NCBI GenBank assembly: GCA_032718475.1
Contig: JAUCBJ010009124.1
Coordinates: 17,422 to 81,421 of the forward strand
Origin: Nemertoderma westbladi
Taxonomy: Eukaryota > Animalia > Xenacoelomorpha
DNA: 64,000 bases
Direction of reading: 5' to 3'
Part shown: positions 1 to 60,913 of the stretch, one piece after another
Numbering within the stretch: position 1 is the first letter of the stretch
Layout of the letters: every line of letters begins with the position of its first letter
Notes under the pieces: model-generated
What the model was told of the DNA's origin: nothing
Seen by the model: only the letters and a program-made list of their open reading frames with translations
Databases searched by the model: none
Made by a program: the position numbers and the translations under genes

Positions 1-3000
1 CTGGGGTAGGTTGGTACAAACCGAGGTAGGTTGGTACAAACCGAGGTAGGTTGGTACAAACCGTGTAGGTTGGTACAAACGGAGGTAGGTTGGTACAAAC
101 CGAGGTAGGTTGTTACTAACCGAGGTAGGTTGGTACACACCGAGGTACGTTGGTACAAACCGAGGTAGGTTGGTACAAACCGAGGTAGGTTGGTATAAAC
201 TGGGGTAGGTTGGTACAAACCGAGGTAGGTTGGTATAAACTGGGGTAGGTTGGTACAAACCGAGGTAGGTTGTTACAAACTGAGGTAGGTTGGTACAAAC
301 CGAGGTAGGTTGTTACAAACTGAGGTAGGTTGGTACAAACCGAGGTAGGTTTGTACAAACCGAGGTAGGTTGGTACAAACCGAGGTAGGTTGTTACAAAC
401 CGAGGTAGGTTGGTACAAACCGTGTAGGTTGGTACAAACCGAGGTAGGTTGGTACAAACCGAGGTAGGTTGGTACAAACTGGGATAGGTTGGTACAAACT
501 GATTGTAGGTTGGTACAAACCGAGGTAGGTTGGTACAAACTGGGGTAGGTTTGTACAAACCGAGGTAGGTTGTTACAAACCGAGTAGGTTGGTACAAACC
601 GAGGTAGGTTTGTACAAACCGAGGTAGGTTGGTACAAACTGGGGTAGGTTGGTACAAACCGAGGTAGGTTGGTACAAACCGTGTAGGTTGGTACAAACCG
701 AGGTAGGTTGGTACAAACTGATTGTAGGTTGGTACAAACTGGGGTAGGTTGGTACAAACCGAGGTAGGTTGGTACAAACCGAGGTAGGTTGGTACAAACC
801 GAGGTAGGTTGGTACAAACCGAGGTAGGTTGGTACAAACCGAGGTAGGTTGGTACAAACCGAGGTAGGTTGGTACAAACCGAGGTAGGTTGGTACAAACT
901 GGGGTAGGTTGGTACAAACCGAGGTAGGTTGGTACAAACCGAGGTAGGTTGGTACAACCCGAGGTAGGTTAGTACAAACCGAGGTAGGTTGGTACAAACC
1001 GAGGTAGGTTGGTACAAACCGAGGTAGGTTGGTACAAACTGGGGTAGGTTGGTTCAAACTGGGGTAGGTTGGTACAAACCGAGGTAGGTTGGTACAAACC
1101 GAGTAGGTTGTTACAAACCGAGGTAGGTTGGTACAATCTGGGTTAGGTTGGTACAAACCGAGGTAGGTTGGTACAAACCGAGGTAGGTTGGTACAAACCG
1201 AGGTAGGTTGGTACAAACCGAGGTAGGTTGGTACAAACCGAGGTAGGTTGGTACAACCCGAGGTAGGTTAGTACAAACCGAGGTAGGTTGGTACAAACCG
1301 AGGTAGGTTGGTACAAACCGAGGTAGGTTGGTACAAACTGGGGTAGGTTGGTACAAACTGGGGTAGGTTGGTACAAACCGAGGTAGGTTGGTACAAACCG
1401 AGTAGGTTGTTACAAACCGAGGTAGGTTGGTACAATCTGGGGTAGGTTGGTACAAACCGAGGTAGGTTGGTACAAACCGAGGTAGGTTGGTACAAACCGA
1501 GGTAGGTTGGTACAAACCGAGGTAGGTTGGTACAAACCGAGGTAGGTTGGTACAAACTGGGGTAGGTTGGTACAAACCGAGGTAGGTTGGTACAAACCGA
1601 GGTAGGTTGGTACAAACCGAGGTAGGTTGGTACAACCCGAGGTAGGTTAGTACAAACCGAGGTAGTTTGGTACAAACCGAGGTAGGTTGGTACAAACCGA
1701 GGTAGGTTGGTACAAACCGAGGTAGGTTGGTACAAACCGAGGTAGGTTGTTACAAACCGAGTAGGTTGGTACAAACCGAGGTAGGTTTGTACAAACCGAG
1801 GTAGGTTGGTACAAACTGGTGTAGGTTGGTACAAACTGATTGTAGGTTGGTACAAACCGAGGTAGGTTGGTACAAACTGGGGTAGGTTTGTACAAACCGA
1901 GGTAGGTTGTTACAAACCGAGTAGGTTGGTACAAACCGAGGTAGGTTGGTACAAACTGAGGTAGGTTTGTACAAACCGAGGTAGGTTGGTACAAACCGAG
2001 GTAGGTTGGTACAAACCGTGTAGGTTGGTACAAACCGAGGTAGGTTGGTACAAACTGATTGTAGGTTGGTACAAACTGGGGTAGGTTGGTACAAACCGAG
2101 GTAGGTTGGTACAAACCGAGATAGGTTGGTACAAACTAAGGTAGGTTGGTACAAACCGAGGTAGGTTGGTACAAACCGAGTTAGGTTGTTACAAACCGAG
2201 TAGGTTGTTACAAACCGAGGTAGGTTGGTACAAACCGAGGTAGGTTGGTACAAACTGGGGTAGGTTGGTACAAACCGAGGTAGGTTGGTACAAACTGAGG
2301 TAGGTTGGTACAAACTGAGGTAGGTTTGTACAAACCGAGGTAGGTTGGTACAAACTGGGGTAGGTTGGTACAAACCGAGGTAGGTTGGTACAAACCGAGA
2401 TAGGTTTGTACAAACTGAGGTAGGTTTGTACAAACCGAGGTAGGTTGGTACAAACCGAGGTAGGTTGGTACAAACCGTGTAGGTTGGTACAAACCGAGGT
2501 AGGTTGGTACAAACTGATTGTAGGTTGGTACAAACTGGGGTAGGTTGGTACAAACCGAGGTAGGTTGGTACAAACCGAGATAGGTTGGTACAAACTAAGG
2601 TAGGTTGGTACAAACCGAGGTAGGTTGGTACAAACCGAGTTAGGTTGTTACAAACCGAGTAGGTTGTTACAAACCGAGGTAGGTTGGTACAAACCGAGGT
2701 AGGTTGGTACAAACTGGGGTAGGTTGGTACAAACCGAGGTAGGTTGGTACAAACTGAGGTAGGTTGGTACAAACTGAGGTAGGTTGGTATAAACCGAGGT
2801 AGGTTGATACAAACGGAGGTAGGTTGGTACAAACCGAGGTAGGCTGGTACAAACCGAGGTAGGTTGGTACAAACCGAGGTAGGTTGTTACAAACCGAGGT
2901 AGGTTGTTACAAACCGAGTAGGTTGTTACAAACCGAGTAGGTTGTTACAAACCGAGTAGGTTGGTATAAACCGAGGTAGGTTGGTACAAACCGAGGTAGG

Positions 3001-4675
3001 TTGGTACAAACTGGGGTAGGTTGGTACAAACCGAGGTAGGTTGGTACAAACCGAGGTAGGTTGGTACAAACCGTGTAGGTTGGTACAAACCGAGGTAGGT
3101 TGGTACAAACCGTGTAGGTTGGTACAAACCGAGGTAGGTTGGTACAAACTGAGGTAGGTTGGTACAAACCGAGGTAGGCTGGTACAAACCGAGGTAGGTT
3201 GGTATAAACCGAGGTAGGTTGGTACAAACCGAGGTAGGTTGGTACAAACTGGGGTAGGTTGGTATAAACCGAGGTAGGTTGGTACAAACCGAGGTAGGTT
3301 GGTACAAACCGTGTAGGTTGGTACAAACCGAGGTAGGTTGGTACAAACCGAGGTAGGTTGGTACAAACCGTGTAGGTTGGTACAAACCGTTTAGGTTGGT
3401 ACAAACCGAGGTAGGTTGGTACAAACCGAGGTAGGTTTGTACAAACCGAGGTAGGTTGGTATAAACTGGGGTAGGTTGGTACAAACTGAGGTAGGTTGGT
3501 ACAAACTGAGGTAGGTTGGTACAAACCGAGGTAGGTTGTTTCAAACTGAGGTAGGTTGGTACAAACCGTGTAGGTTGGTACAAACTGAGGTAGGTTGTTA
3601 CAAACCGAGGTAGGTTGGTACAAACCGAGGTAGGTTGTTACAAACCGAGGTAGGTTGGTACAAACCGAGGTAGGTTGGTACAAACCGAGGTAGGCTGGTA
3701 CAAACCGAGGTAGGTTGGTATAAACCGAGGTAGGTTGGTACAAACCGAGGTAGGTTGGTACAAACTGGGGTAGGTTGGTATAAACCGAGGTAGGTTGGTA
3801 CAAACCGAGGTAGGTTGGTACAAACCGTGTAGGTTGGTACAAACCGAGGTAGGTTGGTACAAACCGAGGTAGGTTGGTACAAACCGTGTAGGTTGGTACA
3901 AACCGTTTAGGTTGGTACAAACCGAGGTAGGTTGGTACAAACCGAGGTAGGTTTGTACAAACCGAGGTAGGTTGGTATAAACTGGGGTAGGTTGGTACAA
4001 ACTGAGGTAGGTTGGTACAAACCGAGGTAGGTTGGTATAAACCGAGGTAGGTTGGTACAAACCGAGGTAGGTTGGTACAAACTGGGGTAGGTTGGTATAA
4101 ACCGAGGTAGGTTGGTACAAACCGAGGTAGGTTGGTACAAACCGTGTAGGTTGGTACAAACCGAGGTAGGTTGGTACAAACCGAGGTAGGTTGGTACAAA
4201 CCGTGTAGGTTGGTACAAACCGTTTAGGTTGGTACAAACCGAGGTAGGTTGGTACAAACCGAGGTAGGTTTGTACAAACCGAGGTAGGTTGGTATAAACT
4301 GGGGTAGGTTGGTACAAACTGAGGTAGGTTGGTACAAACTGAGGTAGGTTGGTACAAACCGAGGTAGGTTGTTTCAAACTGAGGTAGGTTGGTACAAACC
4401 GTGTAGGTTGGTACAAACTGAGGTAGGTTGTTACAAACCGAGGTAGGTTGGTACAAACCGAGGTAGGTTGTTACAAACTGAGGTAGGTTGGTACAAACTG
4501 AGGTAGGTTGGTACAAACCGAGGTAGGTTGGTACAAACCGTGTAGGTTGGTACAAACTGAGGTAGGTTGTTACAAACCGAGGTAGGTTGGTACAAACCGA
4601 GGTAGGTTGTTACAAACCGAGGTAGGTTGGTACAAACCGAGGTAGGTTGGTACAAACCGAGGGTAGGTTGGTATA
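1..4675 (+). repeat. 20-bp tandem array (TGGTACAAACCGAGGTAGGT)n, ~235 copies, running off the left edge; lies in the last intron of the LAR-family PTP gene
   Basis: Unit read directly; 19-bp deletion variants and CTGGGG/CTGATT/CCGTG variants present; ends ~85 nt before the AG acceptor at 4758-4759. Confidence 0.97.
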
Positions 4676-4759
4676 CTAATTATAATACAAAATATACTTT
4701 GATAGTTTTTGTGTTTATAATCCTTTAATTATTAACCAGATATATTTGTAAATTTGCAG

Positions 4760-4828
4760 GACCAATACGCGTTGTGTTATAAAGCGGCATTGGAATACGT
4801 TGGCAGTTACGATCAGTATTTATCCTAG
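4760..4828 (+). CDS. Lar: Last coding exon of a LAR/PTPRD/PTPRS-family receptor protein tyrosine phosphatase (end of D2 domain)
   Basis: tttgcag|GAC CAA TAC... translates DQYALCYKAALEYVGSYDQYLS*, matching the conserved LAR-family C-terminus (VQTE)DQYxxCYxAALEYLGSFDHY; followed by AT-rich 3'UTR-like sequence. Confidence 0.85.
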   Translation, partial: DQYALCYKAALEYVGSYDQYLS

Positions 4829-4910
4829 CCGGTGCGAGCCGTGGTTGTTGCTATAGAAACAGGTCATCTTCCAGCTGTTTAACTGGTTGAGGAATGTGTT
4901 GGGTTTATAG

Positions 4911-4916
4911 AATAAA
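4911..4916 (+). terminator. Candidate polyadenylation signal of the PTP gene
   Basis: AATAAA ~80 nt after the stop, followed by T-rich sequence; another AATAAA lies near 5420. Confidence 0.35.
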
Positions 4917-6253
4917 ACCGTTTCCTCTTAGTAATTTAAATTGTTTCGAACATTATTTTGTTTTTCTTGCTTTTAAAGTTTCTTTTTGTATTGAATTCTG
5001 TTTTGTTTATAAAGTTATTAATTGATTTTAAGTGCTTATAAGTATAATAATTAATTATGTTAAATGTATATAAATTATTTGAATGTTTGTTAAAAAGTAA
5101 TTATGTTAAGTAATTATTTGTTCGTTAAAAGTTGCACATTTTCTAAAGTTATATTGGGTGCAATGCCTAGTGCGTGCAATTAAAGTAGTGCAATGAGTTT
5201 ATCAAGTCAGTCTTCGAATTGATTGAAAATTAATGTTTTTTTTATACATTATTTACTATTATTGTTATTTTCTAAGCTAATTAATTCTAACTTGTGTTGG
5301 GGGGTAACCCCTTTTGTTTAATTTATGTTCTGTAATCGTAAACATAATTTATTACAATTCGATCTCAAACACTCATTATTATAATTATACCGCATACAAA
5401 TACAGGCAATATAAAGGCAAATAAAGGGTCGTATGTGTATCAAGTAGAAAAACCGAAAACCGAAAAACTTACTAACTCAGCTAATTGAGAATTTTCATTT
5501 TCCATAAAAATCTGGCGCTATTTAATTATAAAAAAAAGTGAAACAAATCTTACCATGCGACTGCCATGTCAACTGACAGAGGCAGAAAGAATTTCACGGT
5601 TTCAGATGAGTTGGCCCGCTGTTTATTACCGTAACAATCGCTTTAATCTAAATGTAAGGCTATCGACCAACTGTATTCTATGTAGAATTTTAATGCTACG
5701 GTACCGATATACCTAAAATAGATTATCATATCATTAAAATCAATAGAATACATTCGTCGTATTGATGATAATGTTTCCCACCTGAACGAACAAGACTAAC
5801 CATGTTTCCGTGAATTGGACGAGCGAATAATTATTTCTAACGCCGAAATAAACCTGATAATGTCATTTGTTTATCAGCGTAGCGATTAATGTCTGTTATT
5901 TGGGACATACATTTTTTCATAAATAAAAAATTGCTCAATTCCATTTTTATCTCATCTCATCTGATTTCATTAAATTAAATTAAATGTATTTTTTATTATT
6001 ATTAAGGATGTATTACTGAATTAAATTAATTTTTTATTATTATTAAGGATGTATTACTGAATTAAATTTGAATTAAAAACTAAAATTACGAAATTTTAAT
6101 GGACTTTGTTTTTTCGAAATCAGCGATATCGAGCGAGTGTCGTATTTTTCAAGCATTAATACCGTTATTTTACAAAATTAATTTCAGCACTGTCTGTTAT
6201 TAATATGTAATAGAATGTCCGCTTTGATTTGATCCGATTTGATTTGGCTATTT

Positions 6254-9200
6254 GAATGCCTATTTGAATGCCTGTTCACCACATGGGTGATCTTCCACAG
6301 TAAACTCTTCCACTCTGTTTCCTAAAGGAATGCCTGTTCACCACATGGGTGATCTTCCACAGTAAACCCTTCCGCTCTGTTTCCTAAAGGAATGCCTGTT
6401 CACCACCATGGGTGATCTTCCACAGTAAACCCTTCCACTCTCTTTTCCAAAGGAATGCCTGTTCACTACCATGGGTGATCTTCCACAGTAAACCCTTCCG
6501 CTCTGTTTCCTAAAGGAATGCCTGTTCGCCACCACGAGTGATCTTCCATAGTAAACCCTTCCACTCTCTTTTCCAAAGGAATGCCTGTTCACTACCATGG
6601 GTGATCTTCCACAGTAAACCCTTCCACTCTGTTTCCTAAAGGAATCCCTGTTCACCACCATGGGTGATCTTCCACAGTAAACCCTTCCACTCTGTTTCCC
6701 AAAGGAATGCGTGTTCACCACCATGGGTCATCTTCCACAGTAAACCCTTCCACTCTGCTGTTTCATAAAGGAATGCCTGTTCACCACCATGGGTGATCTT
6801 CCATAGTAAACCCTTCCACTCTGTTTCCTAAAGGAATGCCTGTTCACCACCATGGATGATCTTCCATAGTAAACTCTTCCACTCTGTTTTCTAAAGGAAT
6901 GCCTGTTCACCACCATGGGTGATCTTCCACAGTAAACCCTTCCACTCTGTTTCCTAGAGGAATGCCTGTTCAATACAATGGGTGATCTTCCACAGTAAAC
7001 CCTTCCACTCTGTTTCCCAAAGGAATGCCTGTTCACCACCATGGGTGATCTTCCACAGTAAACCCTTCCACTCTGTTTCCTAAAGGAATGCCTGTTCACT
7101 ACCATGGGTGATCTTCCACAGTAAATCCTTCCATTATGTTTCCTAAAGGAATGCCTGTTCACCAACATGGGCGATCTTCCGCAGTAAACCCTTCCACTCT
7201 GTTTCCCAAAGGAATGCCTGTTCACCACCATGGGTGATCTTCCACAGTAAACCCTTCCACTCTGTTTCCCAAAGGAATGCCTGTCCACCACCATGGCTGA
7301 TCTTCCACAGTAAATCCTTCCATTATGTTTCCTAAAGGAATGCCTGTTCACCACCATGGGTGATCTTCCACAGTAAACCCTTCCACTCTGTTTCCTAAAG
7401 GAATCCCTGTTCATTACCATGGGTGATCTTCCACGTAAACCCTTCCACTCTGTTTCCCAAAGGAATGCGTGTTAACCACCATGGGTGATTTTCCACGTAA
7501 ACCCTTCCACTCTGTTTCCTAGAGGAATGCCTGTTCAACACAATGGGTGATCTTCCACAGTAAACCCTTCCACTCTGTTTCCTAAAGGAATCCCTGTTCA
7601 TTACCATGGGTGATCTTCCACGTAAACCCTTCCACTCTGTTTCCCAAAGGAATGCGTGTTAACCACCATGGGTGATTTTCCACGTAAACCCTTCCACTCT
7701 GTTTCCTAGAGGAATGCCTGTTCAACACAATGGGTGATTTTCCACGTAAACCCTTCCACTCTGTTTCCCAAAGGAATGCCTGTTAACCACCATGGGTGAT
7801 TTTCCACGTAAACCCTTCCACTCTGTTTCCTAGAGGAATGCCTGTTCAACACAATGGGTGATCTTCCACAGTAAACCCTTCCACTCTGTTTCCCAAAGGA
7901 ATGCCTGTTCACCACCATGGGTGATTTTCCACAGTAAACCCTTCCTTCCACTCTGTTTCGCAAAGGAATGCGTGTTAACCACCATGGGTGATTTTCCACG
8001 TAAACCCTTCCACTCTGTTTCCCAAAGGAATGCCTGTTCACCACCATGGGTGATCTTCCACAGTAAACCCTTCCACTCTGTTTCCTAGAGGAATGCCTGT
8101 TCAACACAATGGGTGATCTTCCACAGTAAACCCTTCCACTCTGTTTCCCAAAGGAATGCCTGTTCACCACCATGGGTGATTTTCCACAGTAAACCCTTCC
8201 TTCCACTCTGTTTCCCAAAGGAATGCCTGTTCACCACCATGGGTGATCTTCCACAGTAAACCCTTCCACTCTGTTTCCTAAAGGAATCCCTGTTCATTAC
8301 CATGGGTGATCTTCCACGTAAACCCTTCCACTCTGTTTCCCAAAGGAATGCCTGTTCACCACCATGGGTGATCTTCCACAGTAAACCCTTCCACTCTGTT
8401 TCCCAAAGGAATGCCTGTCCACCACCATGGCTGATCTTCCACAGTAAACCCTTCCACCCTGTTGCTTAAAGGAATGCCTGTTCACCACCATGGGTGATCT
8501 TCCACAGTAAACCCTTCCACTCTGTTTCCTAAAGGAATCCCTGTTCACTGCCATGGGTGATCTTCCACGTAAACCCTTCCACTCTGTTTCCCAAATGAAT
8601 GCGTGTTAACCACCATGGGTGATTTTCCACGTAAACCCTTCCACTCTGTTTCCTAAAGGAATGCCTGTTCACCACCATGGGTGATCTTCCTCAGTAAACC
8701 CTTCCACTCTGTTTCCCAAAGGAATGCGTGTTCACCACCATGGGTCATCTTCCACATTAAACCCTTCCAATCTGCTGTTTCCTAAAGGAATGCCTGTTCA
8801 CCACCATGGGTGATCTTCCACAGTAAACCCTTCCACTCTGTTTCCCAAAGGAATGCGTGTTCACCACCATGGGTCATCTTCCACATTAAACCCTTCCAAT
8901 CTGCTGTTTCCTAAAGGAATGCCTGTTCACCACCATGGGTGATCTTCCACAGTAAACCCTTCCACTCTGTTTCCTAAAGGAATGCCTGTTCACCACCATG
9001 GGTGATTTTCCACAGTAAATCCTTCCATTATGTTTCCTAAAGGAATGCCTGTTCACCAACATGGGCGATCTTCCGCAGTAAACCCTTCCACTCTGTTTCC
9101 CAAAGGAATGCCTGTTCACCACCATGGGTGATCTTCCACAGTAAACCCTTCCACTCTGTTTCCCAAAGGAATGCCTGTCCACCACCATGGCTGATCTTCC

Positions 9201-11543
9201 ACAGTAAATCCTTCCATTATGTTTCCTAAAGGAATGCCTGTTCACCAACATGGGCGATCTTCCGCAGTAAACCCTTCCACTCTGTTTCCCAAAGGAATGC
9301 CTGTTCACCACCATGGGTGATCTTCCACAGTAAACCCTTCCACTCTGTTTCCCAAAGGAATGCCTGTCCACCACCATGGCTGATCTTCCACAGTAAATCC
9401 TTCCATTATGTTTCCTAAAGGAATGCCTGTTCACCAACATGGGCGATCTTCCGCAGTAAACCCTTCCACTCTGTTTCCCAAAGGAATGCCTGTTCACCAC
9501 CATGGGTGATCTTCCACAGTAAACCCTTCCACTCTGTTTCCCAAAGGAATGCCTGTTCACCAACATGGGCGATCTTCCGCAGTAAACCCTTCCACTCTGT
9601 TTCCCAAAGGAATGCCTGTTCACCACCATGGGTGATTTTCCACAGTAAACCCTTCCACTCTATTTCCTAAAGGAATGCCTGTCCACCACCATGGCTGATC
9701 TTCCACAGTAAATCCTTCCATTATGTTTCCTAAAGGAATGCCTGTTCACCAACATGGGCGATCTTCCGCAGTAAACCCTTCCACTCTGTTTCCCAAAGGA
9801 ATGCCTGTTCACCACCATGGGTGATCTTCCACAGTAAACCCTTCCACTCTGTTTCCCAAAGGAATGCCTGTTCACCACCATGGGTGATCTTCCACAGTAA
9901 ACCCTTCCACTCTGTTTCCTAAAGGAATGCCTGTTCACCACCTTGGGTGTCTTCCACAGTAAATCCTTCCATTATGTTTCCTAAAGGAATGCCTGTTCAC
10001 CAACATGGGCGATCTTCCGCAGTAAACCCTTCCACTCTGTTTCCCAAAGGAATGCCTGTTCACCACCATGGGTGATCTTCCACAGTAAACCCTTCCACTC
10101 TGTTTCCCAAAGGAATGCCTGTCCACCACCATGGCTGATCTTCCACAGTAAATCCTTCCATTATGTTTCCTAAAGGAATGCCTGTTCACCAACATGGGCG
10201 ATCTTCCGCAGTAAACCCTTCCACTCTGTTTCCCAAAGGAATGCCTGTTCACCACCATGGGTGATCTTCCACAGTAAACCCTTCCACTCTGTTTCCCAAA
10301 GGAATGCCTGTCCACCACCATGGCTGATCTTCCACAGTAAATCCTTCCATTATGTTTCCTAAAGGAATGCCTGTTCACCAACATGGGCGATCTTCCGCAG
10401 TAAACCCTTCCACTCTGTTTCCCAAAGGAATGCCTGTTCACCACCATGGGTGATCTTCCACAGTAAACCCTTCCACTCTGTTTCCCAAAGGAATGCCTGT
10501 TCACCAACATGGGCGATCTTCCGCAGTAAACCCTTCCACTCTGTTTCCCAAAGGAATGCCTGTTCACCACCATGGGTGATTTTCCACAGTAAACCCTTCC
10601 ACTCTATTTCCTAAAGGAATGCCTGTCCACCACCATGGCTGATCTTCCACAGTAAATCCTTCCATTATGTTTCCTAAAGGAATGCCTGTTCACCAACATG
10701 GGCGATCTTCCGCAGTAAACCCTTCCACTCTGTTTCCCAAAGGAATGCCTGTTCACCACCATGGGTGATCTTCCACAGTAAACCCTTCCACTCTGTTTCC
10801 CAAAGGAATGCCTGTTCACCACCATGGGTGATCTTCCACAGTAAACCCTTCCACTCTGTTTCCTAAAGGAATGCCTGTTCACCACCTTGGGTGTCTTCCA
10901 CAGTAAACCCTTCCACTCTGTTTCCTAAAGGAATGCCTGTTCACCAACATGGGCGATCTTCCGCAGTAAACCCTTCCACTCTGTTTCCCAAAGGAATGCC
11001 TGTTCACCACCATGGGTGATTTTCCACAGTAAACCCTTCCACTCTATTTCCTAAAGGAATGCCTGTCCACCACCATGGCTGATCTTCCACAGTAAATCCT
11101 TCCATTATGTTTCCTAAAGGAATGCCTGTTCACCAACATGGGCGATCTTCCGCAGTAAACCCTTCCACTCTGTTTCCCAAAGGAATGCCTGTTCACCACC
11201 ATGGGTGATCTTCCACAGTAAACCCTTCCACTCTGTTTCCCAAAGGAATGCCTGTTCACCACCATGGGTGATCTTCCACAGTAAACCCTTCCACTCTGTT
11301 TCCTAAAGGAATGCCTGTTCACCACCTTGGGTGTCTTCCACAGTAAACCCTTCCACTCTGTTTCCTAAAGGAATGCCTGTTCACCACCATGGGTGATCTT
11401 CCACAGTAAACCCTTCCACTCTGTTTCCTAAATGAATGCCTGTTCACCACCATGGGTGATCTTCCACGTAAACCCTTCCATTATGTTTCCCAAAGGAATG
11501 CCTGTTCACCAACATGGGTGATCTTCCACAGTAAATCCTTCCA
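6254..11543. repeat. 63-bp satellite (~84 copies) with higher-order structure, intergenic between the two convergent 3' ends
   Basis: Unit GAATGCCTGTTCACCACCATGGGTGATCTTCCACAGTAAACCCTTCCACTCTGTTTCCTAAAG; identical ORF-track blocks recur at offsets of 944 and 440 bp. Confidence 0.97.
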
Positions 11544-11597
11544 CAAATATGTTGTGTGACCCCTAGATCCCTTCCTATAAATGTATAATCCCAAAGG

Positions 11598-13029: not shown

Positions 13030-16000
13030 GCCGTTGGTTGATTACCTTCCGCCGACCTTGTCTGCAGGACTAGCCGTTGGTTGATTACCTTCCGCCGACC
13101 TTGTCTGCATGGCTAGCCGTTGGTTGATTACCTTCCGCCGACCTTGTCTGCAGGACTAGCCGTTGGTTGATTACCTTCCGCCAACATGGTCTGCAGGACT
13201 AGCCGTTGGTTGATTACCTTCCGCCGACCTTGTCTGCAGGACTAGCCGTTGGTTGATTACCTTCCGCCGACCTTGTCTGCATGGCTAGCCGTTGGTTGAT
13301 TACCTTCCGCCAACCTTGTCTGCAGGACTAGCCGTTTGTTGATTACCTTCCGCCGACCTTGTCTGCAGGACTAGCCGTTGGTTGATTACCTTCCGCCGAC
13401 CTTGTCTCCATGACTAACCGTTGGTTGATTACCTTCCGCCGACCTTGTCTGCAGGACTAGCCGTTGGTTGATTACCTTCCGCCGACCTTGTCTGCAGGAC
13501 TAGCCGTTGGTTGATTACCTTCCGCCAACATGGTCTGCAGGACTAGCCGTTGGTTGATTACCTTCCGCCGACCTTGTCTGCAGGACTAGCCGTTGGTTGA
13601 TTACCTTCCGCCGACCTTGTCTGCAGGACTAGCCGTTGGTTGATTACCTTCCGCCGACCTTGTCTGCAGGACTAGCCGTTGGTTGATTACCTTCCGCCGA
13701 CCTTGTCTGCAGGACTAGCCGTTGGTTGATTACCTTCCGCCGACCTTGTCTGCAGGACTAGCCGTTGGTTGATTACCTTCCGCCAACCTTGTCTGCAGGA
13801 CTAGCCGTTGGTTGATTACCTTCCGCCGACCTTGTCTGCAGGACTAACCGTTGGTTGATTACCTTCCGCCAACCTTGTCTGCAGGACTAGCCGTTGGTTG
13901 ATTACCTTCCGCCAACATGGTCTGCAGGACTAGCCGTTGGTTGATTACCTTCCGCCGACCTTGTCTGCAGGACTAGCCGTTGGTTGATTACCTTCCGCCG
14001 ACCTTGTCTGCAGGACTAGCCGTTGGTTGATTACCTTCCGCCAACCTTGTCTGCAGGACTAGCCGTTGGTTGATTACCTTCCGCCGACCTTGTCTGCAGG
14101 ACTAACCGTTGGTTGATTACCTTCCGCCGACCTTGTTTGCAGGACTAGCCGTTGGTTGATTACCTTCCGCCGACCTTGTCTGCAGGACTAGCCGTTGGTT
14201 GATTACCTTCCGCCGACCTTGTCTGCAGGACTAGCCGTTGGTTGATTACCTTCCGCCGACCTTGTCTGCAGGACTAGCCGTTGGTTGATTACCTTCCGCC
14301 GACCTTGTCTGCAGGACTAGCCGTTGGTTGATTACCTTCCGCCGACCTTGTCTGCAGGACTAGCCGTTGGTTGATTACCTTCCGCCGACCTTGTCTGCAG
14401 GACTAGCCGTTGGTTGATTACCTTCCGCCGACCTTGTCTGCAGGACTAGCCGTTGGTTGATTACCTTCCGCCGACCTTGTCTGCAGGACTAGCCGTTGGT
14501 TGATTACCTTCCGCCGACCTTGTCTGCAGGACTAGCCGTTGGTTGATTACCTTCCGCCGACCTTGTCTGCAGGACTAGCCGTTGGTTGATTACCTTCCGC
14601 CGACCTTGTCTGCAGGACTAGCCGTTGGTTGATTACCTTCCGCCGACCTTGTCTGCAGGACTAGCCGTTGGTTGATTACCTTCCGCCGACCTTGTCTGCA
14701 GGACTAGCCGTTGGTTGATTACCTTCCGCCGACCTTGTCTGCAGGACTAGCCGTTGGTTGATTACCTTCCGCCGACCTTGTCTGCAGGACTAGCCGTTGG
14801 TTGATTACCTTCCGCCGACCTTGTCTGCAGGACTAGCCGTTGGTTGATTACCTTCCGCCGACCTTGTCTGCAGGACTAGCCGTTGGTTGATTACCTTCCG
14901 CCGACCTTGTCTGCATGACTAGCCGTTGGTTGATTACCTTCCGCCGACCTTGTCTGCAGGACTAGCCGTTGGTTGATTACCTTCCGCCGACCTTGTCTGT
15001 AGGACTAGCCGTTGGTTGATTACGTTCCGCCGACCTTGTCTGCAGGACTAGCCGTTGGTTGATTACCTTCCGCCGACCTTGTCTGAAGGACTAGCCGTTG
15101 GTTGATTACCTTCCGCCGACCTTGTCTGCAGGACTAGCCGTTGGTTTATTACCTTCCGCCGACCTTGTCTGCATGACATGCCGTTTGTTGATTACCTTCC
15201 GCCGACCTTGTCTGCATGGCTAGCCGTTGGTTGATTACCTTCCACCAACCTTGTCTGCAGGACTAGCCGTTGGTTGATTACCTTCCGCCGACCTTGTCTG
15301 CAGGACTAGCCGTTGGTTGATTACCTTACGCCGACCTTGTCTGTATGTCTAGCCGTTGGTTGATTACCTTCCGCCGACCTTGTCTGCAGGACTAGCCGTT
15401 GGTTGATTACCTTCCGCCGACCTTGTCTGCAGGACTAGCCGTTGGTTGATTACCTTCCGCCGACCTTGTCTGCAGGACTAGCCGTTGGTTGATTACCTTC
15501 GGCCGACCTTGTCTGCGGGACTAGCCGTTGGTTGATTACCTTCCGCCGACCTTGTCTGCAGGACTAGCCGTTGGTTGATTACCTTCCGCCGACCTTGTCT
15601 GCAGGACTAGCCGTTGGTTGATTACCTTCCGCCAACCTTGTCTGCAGGACTAGCCGTTGGTTGATTACCTTCCGCCGACCTTGTCTGCAGGACTAGCCGT
15701 TGGTTGATTACCTTCCGCCAACCTTGTCTGCAGGACTAGCCGTTGGTTGATTACCTTCCGCCAACCTTGTTTGCAGGACTAGCCGTTGGTTGTTTACCTT
15801 CCACCGACCTTGTCTGCATGGCTAGCCGTTGGTTGATTACCTTCCGCCGACCTTGTCTGCAGGACTAGCCGTTGGTTGATTACCTTCCGCCGACCTTGTC
15901 TGCAGGACTAGCCGTTGGTTGATTACCTTCCGCCAACCTTGTCTGCAGGACTAGCCGTTGGTTGATTACCTTCCGCCAACCTTGTCTGCAGGACTAGCCG

Positions 16001-17975
16001 TTGGTTGATTACCTTCCGCCAACCTTGTTTGCAGGACTAGCCGTTGGTTGATTACCTTCCGCCAACCTTGTCTGCAGGACTAGCCGTTGGTTGATTACCT
16101 TCTGCCGACCTTGTCTGCAGGACTAGCCGTTGGTTGATTACCTTCCGCCGACCTTGTCTGCAGGACTAGCCGTTGGTTGATTACCTTCCGCCAACCTTGT
16201 TTGCAGGACTAGCCGTTGGTTGATTACCTTCCGCCAACCTTGTCTGCAGGACTAGCCGTTGGTTGATTACCTTCCGCCGACCTTGTCTGCAGGACTAGCC
16301 GTTGGTTGATTACCTTCCGCCAACCTTGTCTGCAGGACTAGCCGTTGGTTGATTACCTTCCGCCAACCTTGTTTGCAGGACTAGCCGTTGGTTGTTTACC
16401 ATCCACCGACCTTGTCTGCATGGCTAGCCGTTGGTTGATTACCTTCCGCCGACCTTGTCTGCAGGACTAGCCGTTGGTTGATTACCTTCCGCCGACCTTG
16501 TCTGCAGGACTAGCCGTTGGTTGATTACCTTCCGCCAACCTTGTCTGCAGGACTAGCCGTTGGTTGATTATCTTCCGCCAACCTTGTCTGCAGGACTAGC
16601 CGTTGGTTGATTACCTTCCGCCAACCTTGTTTGCAGGACTAGCCGTTGGTTTATTACCTTCCGCCAACCTTGTCTGCAGGACTAGCCGTTGGTTGATTAC
16701 CTTCCGCCGACCTTGTCTGCAGGACTAGCCGTTGGTTGATTACCTTCCGCCGACCTTGTCTGCAGGACTAGCCGTTGGTTGATTACCTTCCGCCAACCTT
16801 GTCTGCAGGACTAGCCGTTGGTTGATTACCTTCCGCCAACCTTGTCTGCAGGACTAGCCGTTGGTTGATTACCTTCCGCCAACCTTGTTTGCAGGACTAG
16901 CCGTTGGTTGATTACCTTCCGCCAACCTTGTCTGCAGGACTAGCCGTTGGTTGATTACCTTCCGCCGACCTTGTCTGCAGGACTAGCCGTTGGTTGATTA
17001 CCTTCCGCCGACCTTGTCTGCAGGACTAGCCGTTGGTTGATTACCTTCCGCCGACCTTGTCTCCATGACTAACCGTTGGTTGATTACCTTCCGCCGACCT
17101 TGTCTGCAGGACTAGCCGTTGGTTGATTACCTTCCACCAACCTTGTCTGCAGGACTAGCCGTTGGTTGATTACCTTCCGCCGACCTTGTCTGCAGGACTA
17201 GCCGTTGGTTGATTACCTTCCGCCAACCTTGTCTGCAGGACTAGCCGTTGGTTGATTACCTTCCGCCAACCTTGTTTGCAGGACTAGCCGTTGGTTGATT
17301 ACCTTCCGCCAACCTTGTCTGCAGGACTAGCCGTTGGTTGATTACCTTCCGCCAACCTTGTCTGCAGGACTAGCCGTTGGTTGATTACCTTCCGCCAACC
17401 TTGTCTGCAGGACTAGCCGTTGGTTGATTACCTTCCGCCAACCTTGTTTGCAGGACTAGCCGTTGGTTGATTACCTTCCGCCAACCTTGTCTGCAGGACT
17501 AGCCGTTGGTTGATTACCTTCCGCCGACCTTGTCTGCAGGACTAGCCGTTGGTTGATTACCTTCCGCCGACCTTGCCTGCAGGACTAGCCGTTGGTTGAT
17601 TACCTTCCGCCGACCTTGTCTCCATGACTAACCGTTGGTTGATTACCTTCCGCCGACCTTGTCTGCAGGACTAGCCGTTGGTTGATTACCTTCCACCAAC
17701 CTTGTCTGCAGGACTAGCCGTTGGTTGATTACCTTCCGCCGACCTTGTCTGCAGGACTAGCCGTTGGTTGATTACCTTCCGCCGACCTTGTCTGCAGGAC
17801 TAGCCGTTGGTTGATTACCTTCCGCCGACCTTGTCTCCATGACTAACCGTTGGTTGATTACCTTCCGCCGACCTTGTCTGCAGGACTAGCCGTTGGTTGA
17901 TTACCTTCCACCAACCTTGTCTGCAGGACTAGCCGTTGGTTGATTACCTTCCGCCGACCTTGTCTCCATGACTAA
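13030..17975. repeat. 43-bp intronic satellite, ~115 copies
   Basis: Unit AGCCGTTGGTTGATTACCTTCCGCCGACCTTGTCTGCAGGACT read directly. Confidence 0.97.
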
Positions 17976-20193: not shown

Positions 20194-20846
20194 TTATAAC
20201 TTTTTGTTGGGCACAGCTTTTGCAAAGTCGGCAATGACGTCCAGGTGGGATCGAACTGGTGACCTCCGGGTTGGAAGTCTGATGCTCTAAGCATTCAGCT
20301 AGTGGCTCAGGCAAAATATAGACCTGAAAATACAATCTGATACCTTGTATGTCCGCAATTTACCTCCTCATGGCCTCCCATCTGTCATACCATCATCTGC
20401 TGCCACTGTGCTCAACACTACAGTACTTGGCCGTCTATCAATAATAACACCAATAATAAATTATAAATATACCGGTCGCATTTCTCTATGGGTGTAACTG
20501 TCCTACCTAAATTAGTAGCTAGAGTGTATGATTAATCATTGTGGCCGTGATGGTTCATGGTTAATATACACTACACTTTCATTGTAGCGAGTGGTTAAAG
20601 ACGGCCAAGTACTACGGTAGGGTTGTGTACAGTGGCAGCAGATGATGGTATTGGACAGATGGAGGGCCATGATGAGGTAAATTGCGGACATACTAGCTAT
20701 CAGATACTATTTCCACGTCTATCTTTTACCTGAGCCGCTAGCTGAATGGTTAGAGCGTCAGGCTTCCAACCCGGAGGTCACCAGTTCGATCCCACCTGGA
20801 CGTCATTGCCGACTTTGCAAAAGCTGTGCCCAACAAAAAGTTATAA
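20194..20846. mobile_element. Foldback/MITE-like element: two ~245-bp inverted arms, each carrying an outward-facing tRNA-like segment
   Basis: 20194-20436 is the reverse complement of 20599-20846; tRNA-like part at 20732-20804 (TAGCTGAATGGTTAGAGCG ... GTTCGATCC). Confidence 0.8.
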
Positions 20847-36800: not shown

Positions 36801-37395
36801 TTCGACCGTAATCAGTCAGACTTTCAACCGGGAGGTCACCATTTCGACCGTAATCAGTCAGACTTTCAACCGGGAGGTCACCATTTCGACCGTAATCAGT
36901 CAGACTTTCAACCGGGAGGTCACCATTTTGACCGTAATCAGTCAGACTTTCAACCGGGAGGTCACCATTTCGACCGTAATCAGTCAGACTTTCAACCGGG
37001 AGGTCACCATTTCGACCGTAATCAGTCAGACTTTCAACCGGGAGGTCACCATTTCGACCGTAATCAGTCAGACTTTCAACCGGGAGGTCACCATTTCGAC
37101 CGTAATCAGTCAGACTTTCAACCGGGAGGTCACCATTTCGACCGTAATCAGTCAGACTTTCAACCGGGAGGTCACCATTTCGACCGTAATCAGTCAGACT
37201 TTCAACCGGGAGGTCACCATTTCGACCGTAATCAGTCAGACTTTCAACCGGGAGGTCACCATTTCGACCGTAATCAGTCAGACTTTCAACCGGGAGGTCA
37301 CCATTTCGACCGTAATCAGTCAGACTTTCAACCGGGAGGTCACCATTTCGACCGTAATCAGTCAGACTTTCAACCGGGAGGTCACCATTTCGATC
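21829..37395. repeat. 42-bp intronic satellite, at least ~365 copies, nearly homogeneous; contains a 100-N assembly gap (28882-28981)
   Basis: Unit CTTTCAACCGGGAGGTCACCATTTCGACCGTAATCAGTCAGA read directly. Confidence 0.98.
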
Positions 37396-38473: not shown

Positions 38474-39042
38474 ACGGATCCAAGTTGGATGTTGGACGGA
38501 TCCAAGTTGGATGTTGGACGGATCCAAGTGGGATGTTGGACGGATCCAAGTTGGATGTTGGACGGATCCAAGTTGGATGTTGGACGGATCCAAGTTGGAT
38601 GTTGGACGGATCCAAGTTGGATGTTGGACGGATCCAAGTTGGATGTTGGACGGATCCAAGTGGGATGTTGGACGGATCCAAGTTGGATGTTGGACGGATC
38701 CAAGTTGGATGTTGGACGGATCCAAGTTGGATGTTGGACGGATCCAAGTTGGATGTTGGACGGATCCAAGTTGGATGTTGGACGGATCCAAGTTGGATGT
38801 TGGACGGATCCAAGTTGGATGTTGGACGGATCCAAGTTGGATGTTGGACGGATCCAAGTGGGATGTTGGACGGATCCAAGTTGGATGTTGGACGGATCCA
38901 AGTGGGATGTTGGACGGATCCAAGTTGGATGTTGGACGGATCCAAGTTGGATGTTGGACGGATCCAAGTGGGATGTTGGACGGATCCAAGTTGGATGTTG
39001 GACGGATCCAAGTTGGATGTGGGACGGATCCAAGTTGGATGT
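38474..39042. repeat. 22-bp minisatellite, ~26 copies, with an internal palindrome
   Basis: Unit ACGGATCCAAGTTGGATGTTGG; ATCCAA-G-TTGGAT inverted repeat. Confidence 0.95.
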
Positions 39043-41575: not shown

Positions 41576-41604
41576 ACAAGTAATCTCAGAGTTCATACAG
41601 ATGT

Positions 41605-42432
41605 ACTACTACTAGGATCGGCATGCTGCATTGCAGCTGCATTTTTAAGAATGCTGTGCCGGCTTATCGACAAAATTGCACCGCCACAACTCCCTATCAC
41701 CCATGACATTTGCTAGATCATCCGCATCTTCAAGGCCAGTGTCCTTTAAGATGCGTCTCAAGAAAGTCATGGGCTGTCCACCATGCTTATTCACTCCATG
41801 AGGCTGCCAAAGTACAAGATTATGCACTGGTTGGTCCTCACGGCGAAAGCAATGTCCTGCAAAGCGGAGGCGATTTTGTTCTAGTGTCAAGCTTGGGGGA
41901 ACCAATGAGACACCTACAATGTTATATAGTGTCTGGTTGGAGATATGTGCATTGTACTTGACACAATGAACCCGGCGTAGCATTCTTGGGAATGTGCCAT
42001 CCAGAGATTTGGTGTCCTCAGTAGTTAGAGCCCAGCATGGACTCCCATAGAGGAGTACTGGAACTACTGCTGCTCTAAATAATCGGACCTTAAGTTTCCG
42101 ATTAATTCTCGGTGACTTCCAAATTCTGGAAAGCCCATTCAAGGCTGCCCATGCCTTTCCCTTACGTATTCGAAGGTCCTCACCTGACTTCCGGATCCAT
42201 GATCCCAGGTAACAGAAGTCATCCACATGCTCAAGCATACCATCTTTTGAGCTTATGCTCATCCGATCAGAGACTTGCTGAGGACTTTTAAAGTTAACTG
42301 TCAAAATTTTGGTCTTTCTGGAGTTAATAAAAAGACCAACACGTTCTAATAAGCTGAGGAGCCGTTGGGCTCCCTCTAGTGATTCTGAGAGTACTCCTAA
42401 GTCATCAGCAAAGTCTAGAGATGTGGTAAATC
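41605..42432 (-). mobile_element. 5'-truncated RTE-clade LINE of a second family, with TSD
   Basis: LDFADDL, DDFCYLGSWI, VLLYGSPCW, RLRFAGHCFRR, LVLWQP; (TAG)n tail; ACAGATGT duplicated at 41597-41604 and 42433-42440. Confidence 0.9.
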
Positions 42433-54926: not shown

Positions 54927-55058
54927 CTGCTGTATTGGAATAGGAATGGGTCCGAGTTTCACGGTATTAGAAGTTCCTTTACCAGCGATTGTTAGTGAAT
55001 AATAAGCGCAGGCGACACCGAACTCCAAAATAACGAACGCTAAACAGCAGGTGAGCCT
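54927..55058 (-). CDS. PKD1-like exon 3 (TM2)
   Basis: ttacag|AGG...CAG|gtaaat; RLTCCLAFVILEFGVACAYYSL...KLGPIPIPIQQ. Confidence 0.92.
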
Positions 55059-55184: not shown

Positions 55185-58100
55185 ACGAGTAAAGGACTTG
55201 TGATTGGTCATTCTTCTTACCTGTACAAGAGTAACTTGTGATTGGTCAACCTTCTTAATTAACTGTACACGAGTAACTTGTGATTGGTCAACCTTCTTAA
55301 TTAACTGTACACGAGTAACTTGTGATTGGTCATCTTTCTTAACTGTACAAGAGCAACTTGTGATTGGTCAACCTTCTTAATTAACTGTACACGAGTAACT
55401 TGTGATTGGTCAACCTTCTTAATTAACTGTACACGAGTAACTTGTGATTGGTCATCTTTCTTAACTGTACAAGAGTAACTTGTGATTGGTCAACCTTCTT
55501 AATTAACTGTACACGAGTAACTTGTGATTGGTCATCTTTCTTAACTGTACAAGAGTAACTTGTGATTGGTCAACCTTCTTAATTAACTGTACACGAGTAA
55601 CTTGTGATTGGTCAACCTTCTTAATTAACTGTACACGAGTAACTTGTGATTGGTCATCTTTCTTAACTGTACAAGAGTAACTTGTGATTGGTCAACCTTC
55701 TTAATTAACTGTACACGAGTAACTTGTGATTGGTCATCTTTCTTAACTGTACAAGAGTAACTTGTGATTGGTCAACCTTCTTAATTAACTGTACACGAGT
55801 AACTTGTGATTGGTCAACCTTCTTAATTAACTGTACACGAGTAACTTGTGATTGGTCATCTTTCTTAACTGTACAAGAGTAACTTGTGATTGGTCAACCT
55901 TCTTAATTAACTGTACACGAGTAACTTGTGATTGGTCATCTTTCTTAACTGTACAAGAGCAACTTGTGATTGGTCAACCTTCTTAATTAACTGTACACGA
56001 GTAACTTGTGATTGGTCAACCTTCTTAATTAACTGTACACGAGTAACTTGTGATTGGTCATCTTTCTTAACTGTACAAGAGTAACTTGTGATTGGTCAAC
56101 CTTCTTAATTAACTGTACACGAGTAACTTGTGATTGGTCAACCTTCTTAATTAACTGTACAAGAGTAACTTGTGATTGGTCAACCTTCTTAATTAACTGT
56201 ACACGAGTAACTTGTGATTGGTCATCTTTCTTAACTGTACAAGAGTAACTTGTGATTGGTCAACCTTCTTAATTAACTGTACACGAGTAACTTGTGATTG
56301 GTCAACCTTCTTAATTAACTGTACACGAGTAACTTGTGATTGGTCATCTTTCTTAACTGTACAAGAGTAACTTGTGATTGGTCAACCTTCTTAATTAACT
56401 GTACACGAGTAACTTGTGATTGGTCATCTTTCTTAACTGTACAAGAGTAACTTGTGATTGGTCAACCTTCTTAATTAACTGTACACGAGTAACTTGTGAT
56501 TGGTCAACCTTCTTAATTAACTGTACACGAGTAACTTGTGATTGGTCATCTTTCTTAACTGTACAAGAGTAACTTGTGATTGGTCAACCTTCTTAATTAA
56601 CTGTACACGAGTAACTTGTGATTGGTCATCTTTCTTAACTGTACAAGAGCAACTTGTGATTGGTCAACCTTCTTAATTAACTGTACACGAGTAACTTGTG
56701 ATTGGTCAACCTTCTTAATTAACTGTACACGAGTAACTTGTGATTGGTCATCTTTCTTAACTGTACAAGAGTAACTTGTGATTGGTCAACCTTCTTAATT
56801 AACTGTACACGAGTAACTTGTGATTGGTCAACCTTCTTAATTAACTGTACAAGAGTAACTTGTGATTGGTCAACCTTCTTAATTAACTGTACACGAGTAA
56901 CTTGTGATTGGTCAACCTTCTTAATTAACTGTACACGAGTAACTTGTGATTGGTCATCTTTCTTAACTGTACAAGAGCAACTTGTGATTGGTCAACCTTC
57001 TTAATTAACTGTACACTAGTAACTTGTGATTGGTCATCTTTCTTAACTGTACAAGAGTAACTTGTGATTGGTCAACCTTCTTAATTAACTGTACACGAGT
57101 AACTTGTGATTGGTCAACCTTCTTAATTAACTGTACACGAGAAACTTGTGATTGGTCAACCTTCTTAATTAACTGTACAAGAGTAACTTGTGATTGGTCA
57201 ACCTTCTTAATTAACTGTACACGAGTAACTTGTGATTGGTCAACCTTCTTAATTAACTGTACACGAGTAACTTGTGATTGGTCAACCTTCTTAATTAACT
57301 GTACACGAGTAACTTGTGATTGGTCATCTTTCTTAACTGTACAAGAGTAACTTGTGATTGGTCAACCTTCTTAATTAACTGTACACGAGTAACTTGTGAT
57401 TGGTCAACCTTCTTAATTAACTGTACACGAGTAACTTGTGATTGGTCATCTTTCTTAACTGTACAAGAGCAACTTGTGATTGGTCAACCTTCTTAATTAA
57501 CTGTACACGAGTAACTTGTGATTGGTCAACCTTCTTAATTAACTGTACACGAGTAACTTGTGATTGGTCATCTTTCTTAACTGTACAAGAGCAACTTGTG
57601 ATTGGTCAACCTTCTTAATTAACTGTACACTAGTAACTTGTGATTGGTCATCTTTCTTAACTGTACAATAGTAACTTGTGATTGGTCAACCTTCTTAATT
57701 AACTGTACACGAGTAACTTGTGATTGGTCAACCTTCTTAATTAACTGTACACGAGTAACTTGTGATTGGTCAACCTTCTTAATTAACTGTACACGAGTAA
57801 CTTGTGATTGGTCAACCTTCTTAATTAACTGTACACGAGTAACTTGTGATTGGTCATCTTTCTTAACTGTACAAGAGCAACTTGTGATTGGTCAACCTTC
57901 TTAATTAACTGTACACTAGTAACTTGTGATTGGTCATCTTTCTTAACTGTACAAGAGTAACTTGTGATTGGTCAACCTTCTTAATTAACTGTACACGAGT
58001 AACTTGTGATTGGTCAACCTTATATTAATTAACTGTACACGAGTAACTTGTGATTGGTCAACCTTCTTAATTAACTGTACACGAGTAACTTGTGATTGGT

Positions 58101-60763
58101 CAACCTTCTTAATTAACTGTACACGAGTAACTTGTGATTGGTCAACCTTCTTAATTAACTGTACACGAGTAACTTGTGATTGGTCATCTTTCTTAACTGT
58201 ACAAGAGTAACTTGTGATTGGTCAACCTTCTTAATTAACTGTACACGAGTAACTTGTGATTGGTCATCTTTCTTAACTGTACAAGAGCAACTTGTGATTG
58301 GTCAACCTTCTTAATTAACTGTACACTAGTAACTTGTGATTGGTCATCTTTCTTAACTGTACAAGAGTAACTTGTGATTGGTCAACCTTCTTAATTAACT
58401 GTACACGAGTAACTTGTGATTGGTCATCTTTCTTAACTGTACAAGAGCAACTTGTGATTGGTCAACCTTCTTAATTAACTGTACACGAGTAACTTGTGAT
58501 TGGTCAACCTTCTTAATTAACTGTACACGAGTAACTTGTGATTGGTCATCTTTCTTAACTGTACAAGAGTAACTTGTGATTGGTCAACCTTCTTAATTAA
58601 CTGTACACGAGTAACTTGTGATTGGTCATCTTTCTTAACTGTACAAGAGCAACTTGTGATTGGTCAACCTTCTTAATTAACTGTACACGAGTAACTTGTG
58701 ATTGGTCAACCTTCTTAATTAACTGTACACGAGTAACTTGTGATTGGTCAACCTTCTTAATTAACTGTACACGAGTAACTTGTGATTGGTCATCTTTCTT
58801 AACTGTACAAGAGTAACTTGTGATTGGTCAACCTTCTTAATTAACTGTACACGAGTAACTTGTGATTGGTCATCTTTCTTAACTGTACAAGAGCAACTTG
58901 TGATTGGTCAACCTTCTTAATTAACTGTACACGAGTAACTTGTGATTGGTCAACCTTCTTAATTAACTGTACACGAGTAACTTGTGATTGGTCATCTTTC
59001 TTAACTGTACAAGAGCAACTTGTGATTGGTCAACCTTCTTAATTAACTGTACACGAGTAACTTGTGATTGGTCAACCTTCTTAATTAACTGTACACGAGT
59101 AACTTGTGATTGGTCATCTTTCTTAACTGTACAAGAGCAACTTGTGATTGGTCAACCTTCTTAATTAACTGTACACTAGTAACTTGTGATTGGTCAACCT
59201 TCTTAATTAACTGTACACGAGTAACTTGTGATTGGTCAACCTTCTTAATTAACTGTACACGAGTAACTTGTGATTGGTCATCTTTCTTAACTGTACAAGA
59301 GTAACTTGTGATTGGTCAACCTTCTTAATTAACTGTACACGAGTAACTTGTGATTGGTCATCTTTCTTAACTGTACAAGAGCAACTTGTGATTGGTCAAC
59401 CTTCTTAATTAACTGTACACGAGTAACTTGTGATTGGTCAACCTTCTTAATTAACTGTACACGAGTAACTTGTGATTGGTCAACCTTCTTAATTAACTGT
59501 ACACGAGTAACTTGTGATTGGTCAACCTTCTTAATTAACTGTACACTAGTAACTTGTGATTGGTCATCTTTCTTAACTGTACAAGAGTAACTTGTGATTG
59601 GTCATTCTTCTTAATTAACTGTACACGAGTAACTTGTGATTGGTCAACCTTCTTAATTAACTGTACACTAGTAACTTGTGATTGGTCATCTTTCTTAACT
59701 GTACAAGAGTAACTTGTGATTGGTCATTCTTCTTAATTAACTGTACACGAGTAACTTGTGATTGGTCAACCTTCTTAATTAACTGTACACGAGTAACTTG
59801 TGATTGGTCAACCTTCTTAATTAACTGTACACGAGTAACTTGTGATTGGTCATCTTTCTTAACTGTACAAGAGTAACTTGTGATTGGTCAACCTTCTTAA
59901 TTAACTGTACACGAGTAACTTGTGATTGGTCATCTTTCTTAACTGTACAAGAGCAACTTGTGATTGGTCAACCTTCTTAATTAACTGTACACGAGTAACT
60001 TGTGATTGGTCAACCTTCTTAATTAACTGTACAAGAGTAACTTGTGATTGGTCAACCTTATATTAATTAACTGTACACGAGTAACTTGTGATTGGTCAAC
60101 CTTCTTAATTAACTGTACACTAGTAACTTGTGATTGGTCATCTTTCTTAACTGTACAAGAGTAACTTGTGATTGGTCAACCTTCTTAATTAACTGTACAC
60201 GAGTAACTTGTGATTGGTCATCTTTCTTAACTGTACAAGAGCAACTTGTGATTGGTCAACCTTCTTAATTAACTGTACACGAGTAACTTGTGATTGGTCA
60301 ACCTTCTTAATTAACTGTACACGAGTAACTTGTGATTGGTCATCTTTCTTAACTGTACAAGAGTAACTTGTGATTGGTCAACCTTCTTAATTAACTGTAC
60401 ACGAGTAACTTGTGATTGGTCATCTTTCTTAACTGTACAAGAGCAACTTGTGATTGGTCAACCTTCTTAATTAACTGTACACGAGTAACTTGTGATTGGT
60501 CAACCTTCTTAATTAACTGTACACGAGTAACTTGTGATTGGTCATCTTTCTTAACTGTACAAGAGCAACTTGTGATTGGTCAACCTTCTTAATTAACTGT
60601 ACACGAGTAACTTGTGATTGGTCAACCTTCTTAATTAACTGTACAAGAGTAACTTGTGATTGGTCAACCTTATATTAATTAACTGTACACGAGTAACTTG
60701 TGATTGGTCATCTTTCTTACCTGAACGCGAGTAAATGGACTTGTGATTGGTCATCTTTCATAC
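55185..60763 (-). repeat. Mixed 42/38-bp intronic satellite (~135 units) derived from the upstream exon end and donor site
   Basis: Sense-strand units CCAATCACAAGTTACTCGTGTACAGTTAATTAAGAAGGTTGA and CCAATCACAAGTTACTCTTGTACAGTTAAGAAAGATGA. Confidence 0.97.
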
Positions 60764-60913
60764 CTGAACGCGAGTAAATGGACTTGTGATTGGCCGCAGG
60801 AACACGGAAAGGTAAATATGCTCATCGGAAATCATATCATGCGACTTGTTGTCAAAAAGCATATTAAACCCGGTTTGGTCTACAGAGGAAGCAACGGCTA
60901 AACGGCGGGAAAT
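60764..60913 (-). CDS. PKD1-like exon 2 seen (linker after PLAT)
   Basis: ttttag|ATT...CAG|gtatga; ISRRLAVASSVDQTGFNMLFDNKSHDMISDEHIYLSVFLRPITSPFTRVQ. Confidence 0.92.

Follow-up and report, generated by a model that had tools for sequence, protein, structure and literature searches.

A minisatellite of at least 234 units reiterating an exon end and its splice donor in a LAR-family phosphatase gene of Nemertoderma westbladi

Minisatellites whose first monomer lies across an exon-intron boundary have been described for F7, IFI6, CBS, LMNB2 and PDGF, and mutagenesis of F7 showed that the most upstream functional donor is the one chosen (PMC1557585). According to the same source, the minisatellites of the latter four genes contain 10-26 units, with the first donor used alone in LMNB2 and PDGF and the first together with the next two used in IFI6 and CBS. 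A 25-bp variable number tandem repeat (VNTR) in human ABCA7 intron 18 ranges from 12 to ~427 units and up to 10.7 kb; low-level use of its second donor results in a frameshift, and length-dependent effects on splicing are shown (PMC5954066). In amphioxus, 'mirage' minisatellites are reported for Adh3, the globins BflGb6 and BflGb9, TnC and PGBD5, where they are length-unstable and reportedly leave normal splicing undisturbed (PMC3087553, PMC3902484). Here, a 64,000-nucleotide stretch of the Nemertoderma westbladi genome (assembly GCA_032718475.1, contig JAUCBJ010009124.1, positions 17,422 to 81,421 of the forward strand; hereafter the window) was analyzed with respect to a tandem array in the last intron of a gene for a LAR-family receptor tyrosine phosphatase. 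The 20-bp unit of this array is comprised of the final 14 nt of the penultimate LAR exon, encoding V-Q-T-E, and the first 6 nt of the intron, GTAGGT.

Tandem Repeats Finder assigned the LAR array a period of 20, 234.6 copies and 91% matches, in agreement with the initial annotation of the window, which had proposed about 235 tandem copies of VQTE plus GTAGGT. Splitting the array on the donor anchor yielded 234 units that fall into 32 types, the commonest (modal unit) accounting for 100 of the 234, with unit lengths of 20 nt (n=199), 19 nt (n=29) and 21 nt (n=6). The GT is kept at 225 of 235 donor positions and the exact GAG/GTAGGT at 159 of them; 235 donors and 234 units are minimum values, since the array extends leftward beyond the window. 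When an 18-base pattern representing the unit was searched for with up to 3 mismatches, all 199 matches in the window lay within the array, versus 0.16 matches expected from shuffles. The final donor-like GT is located at 4663, 97 nt from the CAG acceptor ending at 4759, both exactly where they had been annotated, and the residual intron end between them contains branch-point-like TTAAT/TTAAC at 4725 and 4732.

The initial annotation had noted that the exon following the array starts in phase 0 with DQY, and had predicted that a penultimate exon ending in MVQTE abuts the array. Six sequencing runs were listed, none on record as RNA, and the flank of the array was present in four of these (X1-X4, from three studies); X1 may be the source of the window and is filed under the same sample as X3. 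Contigs of X1-X4 were placed on window positions 4628-6200 and again on 4596-4910. A 411-nt X2 contig of depth 23 (unique flank 22.6) has a loose end at 4611 which translates to ...LRTQRPAM and leads straight into approximately three array units. The penultimate exon ending LRTQRPAMVQTE is thus, as predicted, joined directly to the array in a single-copy contig, from a sample other than the likely source of the window. At the opposite side, the 3' end of the array is joined to the intron tail at single-copy depth in contigs of X1 and X2. Furthermore, a 2349-nt contig of depth 50 from X4, a run of a third study, was placed on 4758-5351 and carries the loose end ...RTQRPAMVQT followed by E-DQY, with neither intron nor repeat. 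X4 contigs covered 12 of 30 bins and none lay on the intron or the repeat, while the longest X4 record was 11.6 kb, compared with 30-137 kb in the other runs. Based on the canonical joint, the cover restricted to exon and untranslated region (UTR) and the short records, the X4 contig likely represents spliced mRNA, an intronless DNA copy being the other possibility. The exon-to-array junction of X2 and the repeat-free exon-to-DQY joint of X4 together identify the array as an amplified exon end plus donor. The exon end in X4 agrees at all 14 nt with a unit variant that occurs, together with GT, 15 times in the array, and at 13 of 14 nt with the modal unit; the threonine codon is ACT in X4 and ACC in the modal unit (103 units with GT), a difference that would be explained by synonymous polymorphism or by drift inside the array.

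The last exon translates to DQYALCYKAALEYVGSYDQYLS followed by a stop codon. Among the eight PDB sequences listed as matches, the top five were PTPRF/LAR, PTPRS and PTPRD (E 2e-5 to 6e-4) and the last two, the weakest, were PTPRA (E 1.5 and 6.5). The LAR-family C-terminal motif RPAMVQTEDQY...AALEY.GS is present when the last exon and the contig loose ends are pieced together, and the C-terminal peptide given for PTP-delta begins RPAMVQTEDQY (PMC7265247).

In X1 and X3, a separate duplicate of approximately 4657-4899, comprising the intron tail together with the last exon, was found between unrelated flanking sequences. This duplicate has a 50-nt deletion in the intron and a 13-nt insertion in the exon, and its depth was 5.35 in X1 and 28.9 in X3 despite their filing as one sample. 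The fragment is free of the array and begins only ~6 nt before the GT, and therefore cannot reveal the ancestral intron.

The array had initially been called a satellite; while the tandem array is real, single-locus minisatellite is the better term. The 20-bp monomer was absent from the remainder of the 64-kb window. Summed contig depth on the repeat, relative to the expectation simulated from the array of the window alone, was 0.27 in X1, 0.63 in X2 and 0.04 in X3, which are crude values and not copy numbers. These ratios differ 15-fold between runs, a spread that hints at variable array length. There was no sign of a depth excess of the many-locus satellite kind in this crude comparison. A search of metagenome contigs with an exact 33-base pattern returned 0 matches and was uninformative.

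With modal units assumed throughout, splicing from donor 2 shifts the frame, and 38 new residues precede a stop codon located in the last exon; from donors 3, 4 and 5, a TAG is encountered 16, 36 and 56 nt ahead of the last junction, respectively. The annotated consequences of donor choice, a frameshift at donor 2 and in-frame TAG codons for later donors, hold to this extent. However, a 19-nt unit variant was found (depth 23 in X2 and 11.4 in X1), the actual second unit beside the exon is likely this variant and not 20 nt long, and the outcome for donors 2 and 3 may change accordingly: worked out by hand with two contig letters unseen, donor 3 would be located at +39, in frame, adding 13 residues. 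The only intronless contig (X4) contains no extra unit, suggesting that the first donor likely dominates in LAR mRNA, with the limit that minor forms are not visible in contigs. Of 24 distinct change classes, 2 fell on the GT (2.4 expected) and 12 on positions -3 to +6 (10.8 expected). By this measure there was neither a purging nor a conservation signal at the donors of the LAR array, a pattern expected of a neutral repeat. According to the initial annotation, the spliceosome would have to choose the first of hundreds of near-identical donors; such a choice has been studied experimentally in F7 and does not constitute an unexplained puzzle.

As for the origin of the array, the exon carries ATGGTAC and the residual intron TTGGTAT, placing two TGGTA words 20 nt apart in a one-unit state. 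Both words of the annotated microhomology were thus recovered, and they likely seeded the array: a single slippage duplication between them would yield exactly a unit of 14 + 6 nt. Repeated blocks of 23, 18, 17 and 16 units occur within the array, the longest comparing with a mean of 6.0 and a maximum of 10 in 200 shuffles of the units. Growth likely proceeded by block duplication, putatively through unequal exchange or gene conversion, with a possible contribution of assembly error to the repeated blocks, and an ancestral intron of ~97 nt would in this manner have reached its present >4.7 kb. Intron gain by tandem duplication is not at issue, since no new intron is created in LAR. The array probably persists because splicing takes the first donor, by analogy with F7 in a co-transcriptional, first-come choice, and the array itself would be without function. 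We consider it very probable that the locus arose by microhomology-seeded duplication of an exon end and donor and by block amplification, and that it is tolerated via first-donor choice and has no function.

Several observations weigh against this reading. The exon, the array and the last exon are spanned by no single sequence, continuity being provided by two junction contigs, and the exon-to-array loose end was found in only one of the four runs (X2). X4 is not recorded as RNA (its label is 'DNA?'), its evidence consists of one contig with 30 loose letters, and no X4 contigs were placed on 4596-4910, possibly through the contig filter. Neither an array-free allele nor an outgroup was seen. 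The depth comparison is based upon a short stretch and filtered contigs, which do not give copy number, and dispersal was assessed within the window and through contig depth. With respect to function, contigs lose rare forms, such that low-level use of later donors is possible, and none of the 234 units deviates at +2 T or +3 A, although three exon-derived positions are equally constant.

An alternative, which we judge improbable, is that splicing makes appreciable use of donors 2-4, to an extent depending on array length, and yields LAR forms whose second phosphatase domain is altered or truncated. Leakage to the next donors is reported for IFI6 and CBS (PMC1557585) and for ABCA7 (PMC5954066), and GT is kept at 225 of 235 donor positions of the LAR array. 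Leaky LAR forms would likely escape nonsense-mediated decay because the array sits in the last intron. Premature stops within 50 nt of the last junction usually escape this decay; with modal units the stop for donor 2 lies in the last exon and those for donors 3 and 4 lie inside that limit, while a 19-nt second unit would make donor 3 the in-frame donor with 13 added residues described above. These possibilities are countered by the sole intronless contig, which has no extra unit and is accompanied by no other X4 contig on the repeat, by the lack of excess donor conservation among the change classes, and by a sister array in a neighboring polycystin-like gene, which has lost nearly all of its donors.

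Far less probable is that a satellite or mobile repeat, already dispersed beforehand, inserted at or overwrote the exon end, the likeness to VQTE/GT being secondary. Unrelated arrays do fill the window, and the array-free duplicate in X1 and X3 suggests that pieces of the locus move, but the unit encodes the conserved VQTE of MVQTEDQY in the correct frame and phase, the array is flush with the exon, the depth values show no excess over one locus, and the window contains no further copy of the monomer. It is equally remote that the array is largely an assembly artefact, i.e. an over-expanded repeat. Long exact internal duplications could be mis-assembly, and the depth sums are below the array of the window in all three DNA runs, most clearly in X3. 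Against this, repeat contigs have many times the flank depth in three runs from two studies (summed depth 9810 vs 25.8 for the flank in X1 and 19452 vs 22.6 in X2; single contigs of 171-197 vs 12.4 in X3), and variation among the 32 unit types is structured. The array is therefore not invented, though its length may be off or allele-specific. Amplification of an exon end and donor, tolerated through use of the first donor, is retained as the preferred account of the LAR array.

A second array that spans a donor is located ~50 kb away in a polycystin (PKD1-like) gene on the opposite strand. This gene extends from ~12130 to beyond 60913 (-) with ~14 exons in the window, some edges of which are not fixed, and converges on the LAR 3' end; its introns are inflated by arrays and retroelement remnants. 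Six of 12 segments scanned matched Polycystin_dom or PKD_channel, three of them above the curated cut-off. The array starts within the last 30 nt of its seeding exon (Table 1) and reiterates the exon end and donor, and the exons on its two sides connect in frame to give ...PFTRVQ-RLTCC..., a joint that we take to be a PKD1-like motif. Since both exons and the complete array lie inside the window, the arrangement proposed for LAR is here visible in full, in support of the preferred account. The 50-aa seeding exon gave no match in the protein search and no Pfam hit. GT is kept only in units 1, 2 and 137, TT being present in 134 of 137 units; the distance from the last GT to the acceptor is 162 nt. 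The first donor reads GTATGA. The second donor, at +43, would shift the frame; it reads GTAAGA and is nearer to consensus.

Donor-starting arrays thus represent two of the six large arrays in 64 kb. Given the LAR array, the chance of a second such array among the other five is ~0.05-0.10, a rough estimate with ~14 donors assumed, which is suggestive of enrichment for such seeds but not proof. A bolder proposal, which we put forward only tentatively and regard as unlikely, is that this animal amplifies exon-end plus donor seeds far above chance into many kilobase-scale arrays, with the donors left intact (LAR) or lost from the third onward (polycystin-like gene). The third LAR donor may in that context provide an in-frame, decay-resistant isoform with the 13 extra residues placed in the second phosphatase domain. 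If such a seed bias were true, the genome would serve as a natural experiment on how 5' splice sites are chosen, first-come, among hundreds of competing donors and on whether decoys are purged.

The six large arrays comprise 36.6 of 64 kb (57%) of the window, and the LAR array being one of them, general amplification of short local sequence is likely in this genome. The largest of the remaining four, at 21829-37393 (15.6 kb, 42-bp unit, 98% matches), contains a 100-N gap at 28882-28981. Its unit corresponds to part of a SINE-like repeat that is dispersed, with matches at 20251-20282 and 20757-20789; the right end of the array runs into that repeat, suggesting that other local seeds were also amplified. 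The others are located at 6266-11544 (63-bp unit), 13030-17974 (43-bp unit) and 38474-39042 (22-bp unit). The 43-bp array carries a donor-like AAG/GTAATC on the minus (gene-sense) strand in mid-intron and is possibly a run of cryptic donors; an exon-derived origin was rejected, as the array begins ~300 nt into the intron and is not needed for the exons on either side to join. The 63-, 42- and 22-bp arrays were likewise rejected as exon-derived, none being at exon ends. In addition, a degraded non-LTR retroelement is present at 40685-42430 (-), with an RVT_1 match (E 7.8e-18) and a DUF6451 match; a related stretch was recognized by eye near 62950-63160. A low-copy tandem repeat of ~150/300 bp with CAGA runs occupies 44503-45214.

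Table 1. Features of the LAR and polycystin-like loci, in window coordinates.
Feature	Position	Strand	Basis
20-bp minisatellite, at least 234 units	5..4673	+	repeat finding, donor-anchor split, exon-to-array junction in run X2
Residual 97-nt intron end, last donor-like GT to CAG acceptor	4663..4759	+	sequence
Intronic TGGTA word of the microhomology, its exonic partner 20 nt upstream in the single-unit state	4669..4673	+	sequence; exon letters from contig loose ends
Last-exon coding part, LAR-family (type IIa) receptor tyrosine phosphatase, C-terminus of second phosphatase domain	4760..4828	+	PDB matches
Likely 3' UTR, to the limit of the intronless X4 contig (contig end is not transcript end)	4829..5351	+	X4 contig
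Polycystin-like exon following the array (RLTCC...), continuing the frame of the seeding exon	54927..55058	-	reading frame and splice joint
Donor-spanning minisatellite, 38-44-bp units, 137 counted	55196..60793	-	repeat finding, unit split
Seeding exon, ends ...PITSPFTRVQ, donor GT at 60763	60764..60913	-	reading frame and splice joint

A conserved gene tolerates more than 200 near-identical donors behind the real one, in agreement with the upstream-first choice of F7, and a 20-bp seed is likely sufficient for an intron of ~0.1 kb to expand beyond 4.7 kb. Pairing with a second array whose donors are nearly all dead makes leakage and purging testable in one species. The LAR array locus was not found in the literature searched, where queries did not carry the organism name and supplements were outside the search. 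The human F7 intron 7 37-bp VNTR is similar to the LAR array in that the first monomer spans the boundary and identical donors are reiterated into the intron, and only the most upstream is used in F7; F7 differs in having 5-9 units with 4 exonic bases per unit, versus at least 234 units with 14 of 20 bases exonic here, and its mechanism was tested by mutagenesis whereas that of the LAR array is inferred (PMC1557585). Donor-spanning monomers are also shared with human IFI6 (6-16), CBS intron 13, LMNB2 and PDGF intron 4, as summarized in PMC1557585, although these have roughly ten times fewer units and leakage has been measured in them. As in ABCA7, the repeat unit carries the donor GT, and the size of the LAR array is inside the published ABCA7 range; in contrast, the ABCA7 unit is intronic and begins at the GT, while 70% of the LAR unit is coding exon (PMC5954066). 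The amphioxus 'mirages' are likewise tandem duplications at invertebrate exon-intron boundaries, several per genome, but the globin arrays consist of 2-6 units of 150-160 bp, with acceptor boundaries also duplicated (PMC3087553, PMC3902484), whereas the present 64 kb contain two arrays of the donor type, one of 137 units and one of at least 234. In light of the F7-type and amphioxus cases and of ABCA7 with up to ~427 units, neither the layout nor the size of the LAR array is new, and the locus extends a known class of boundary minisatellites instead of opening another.

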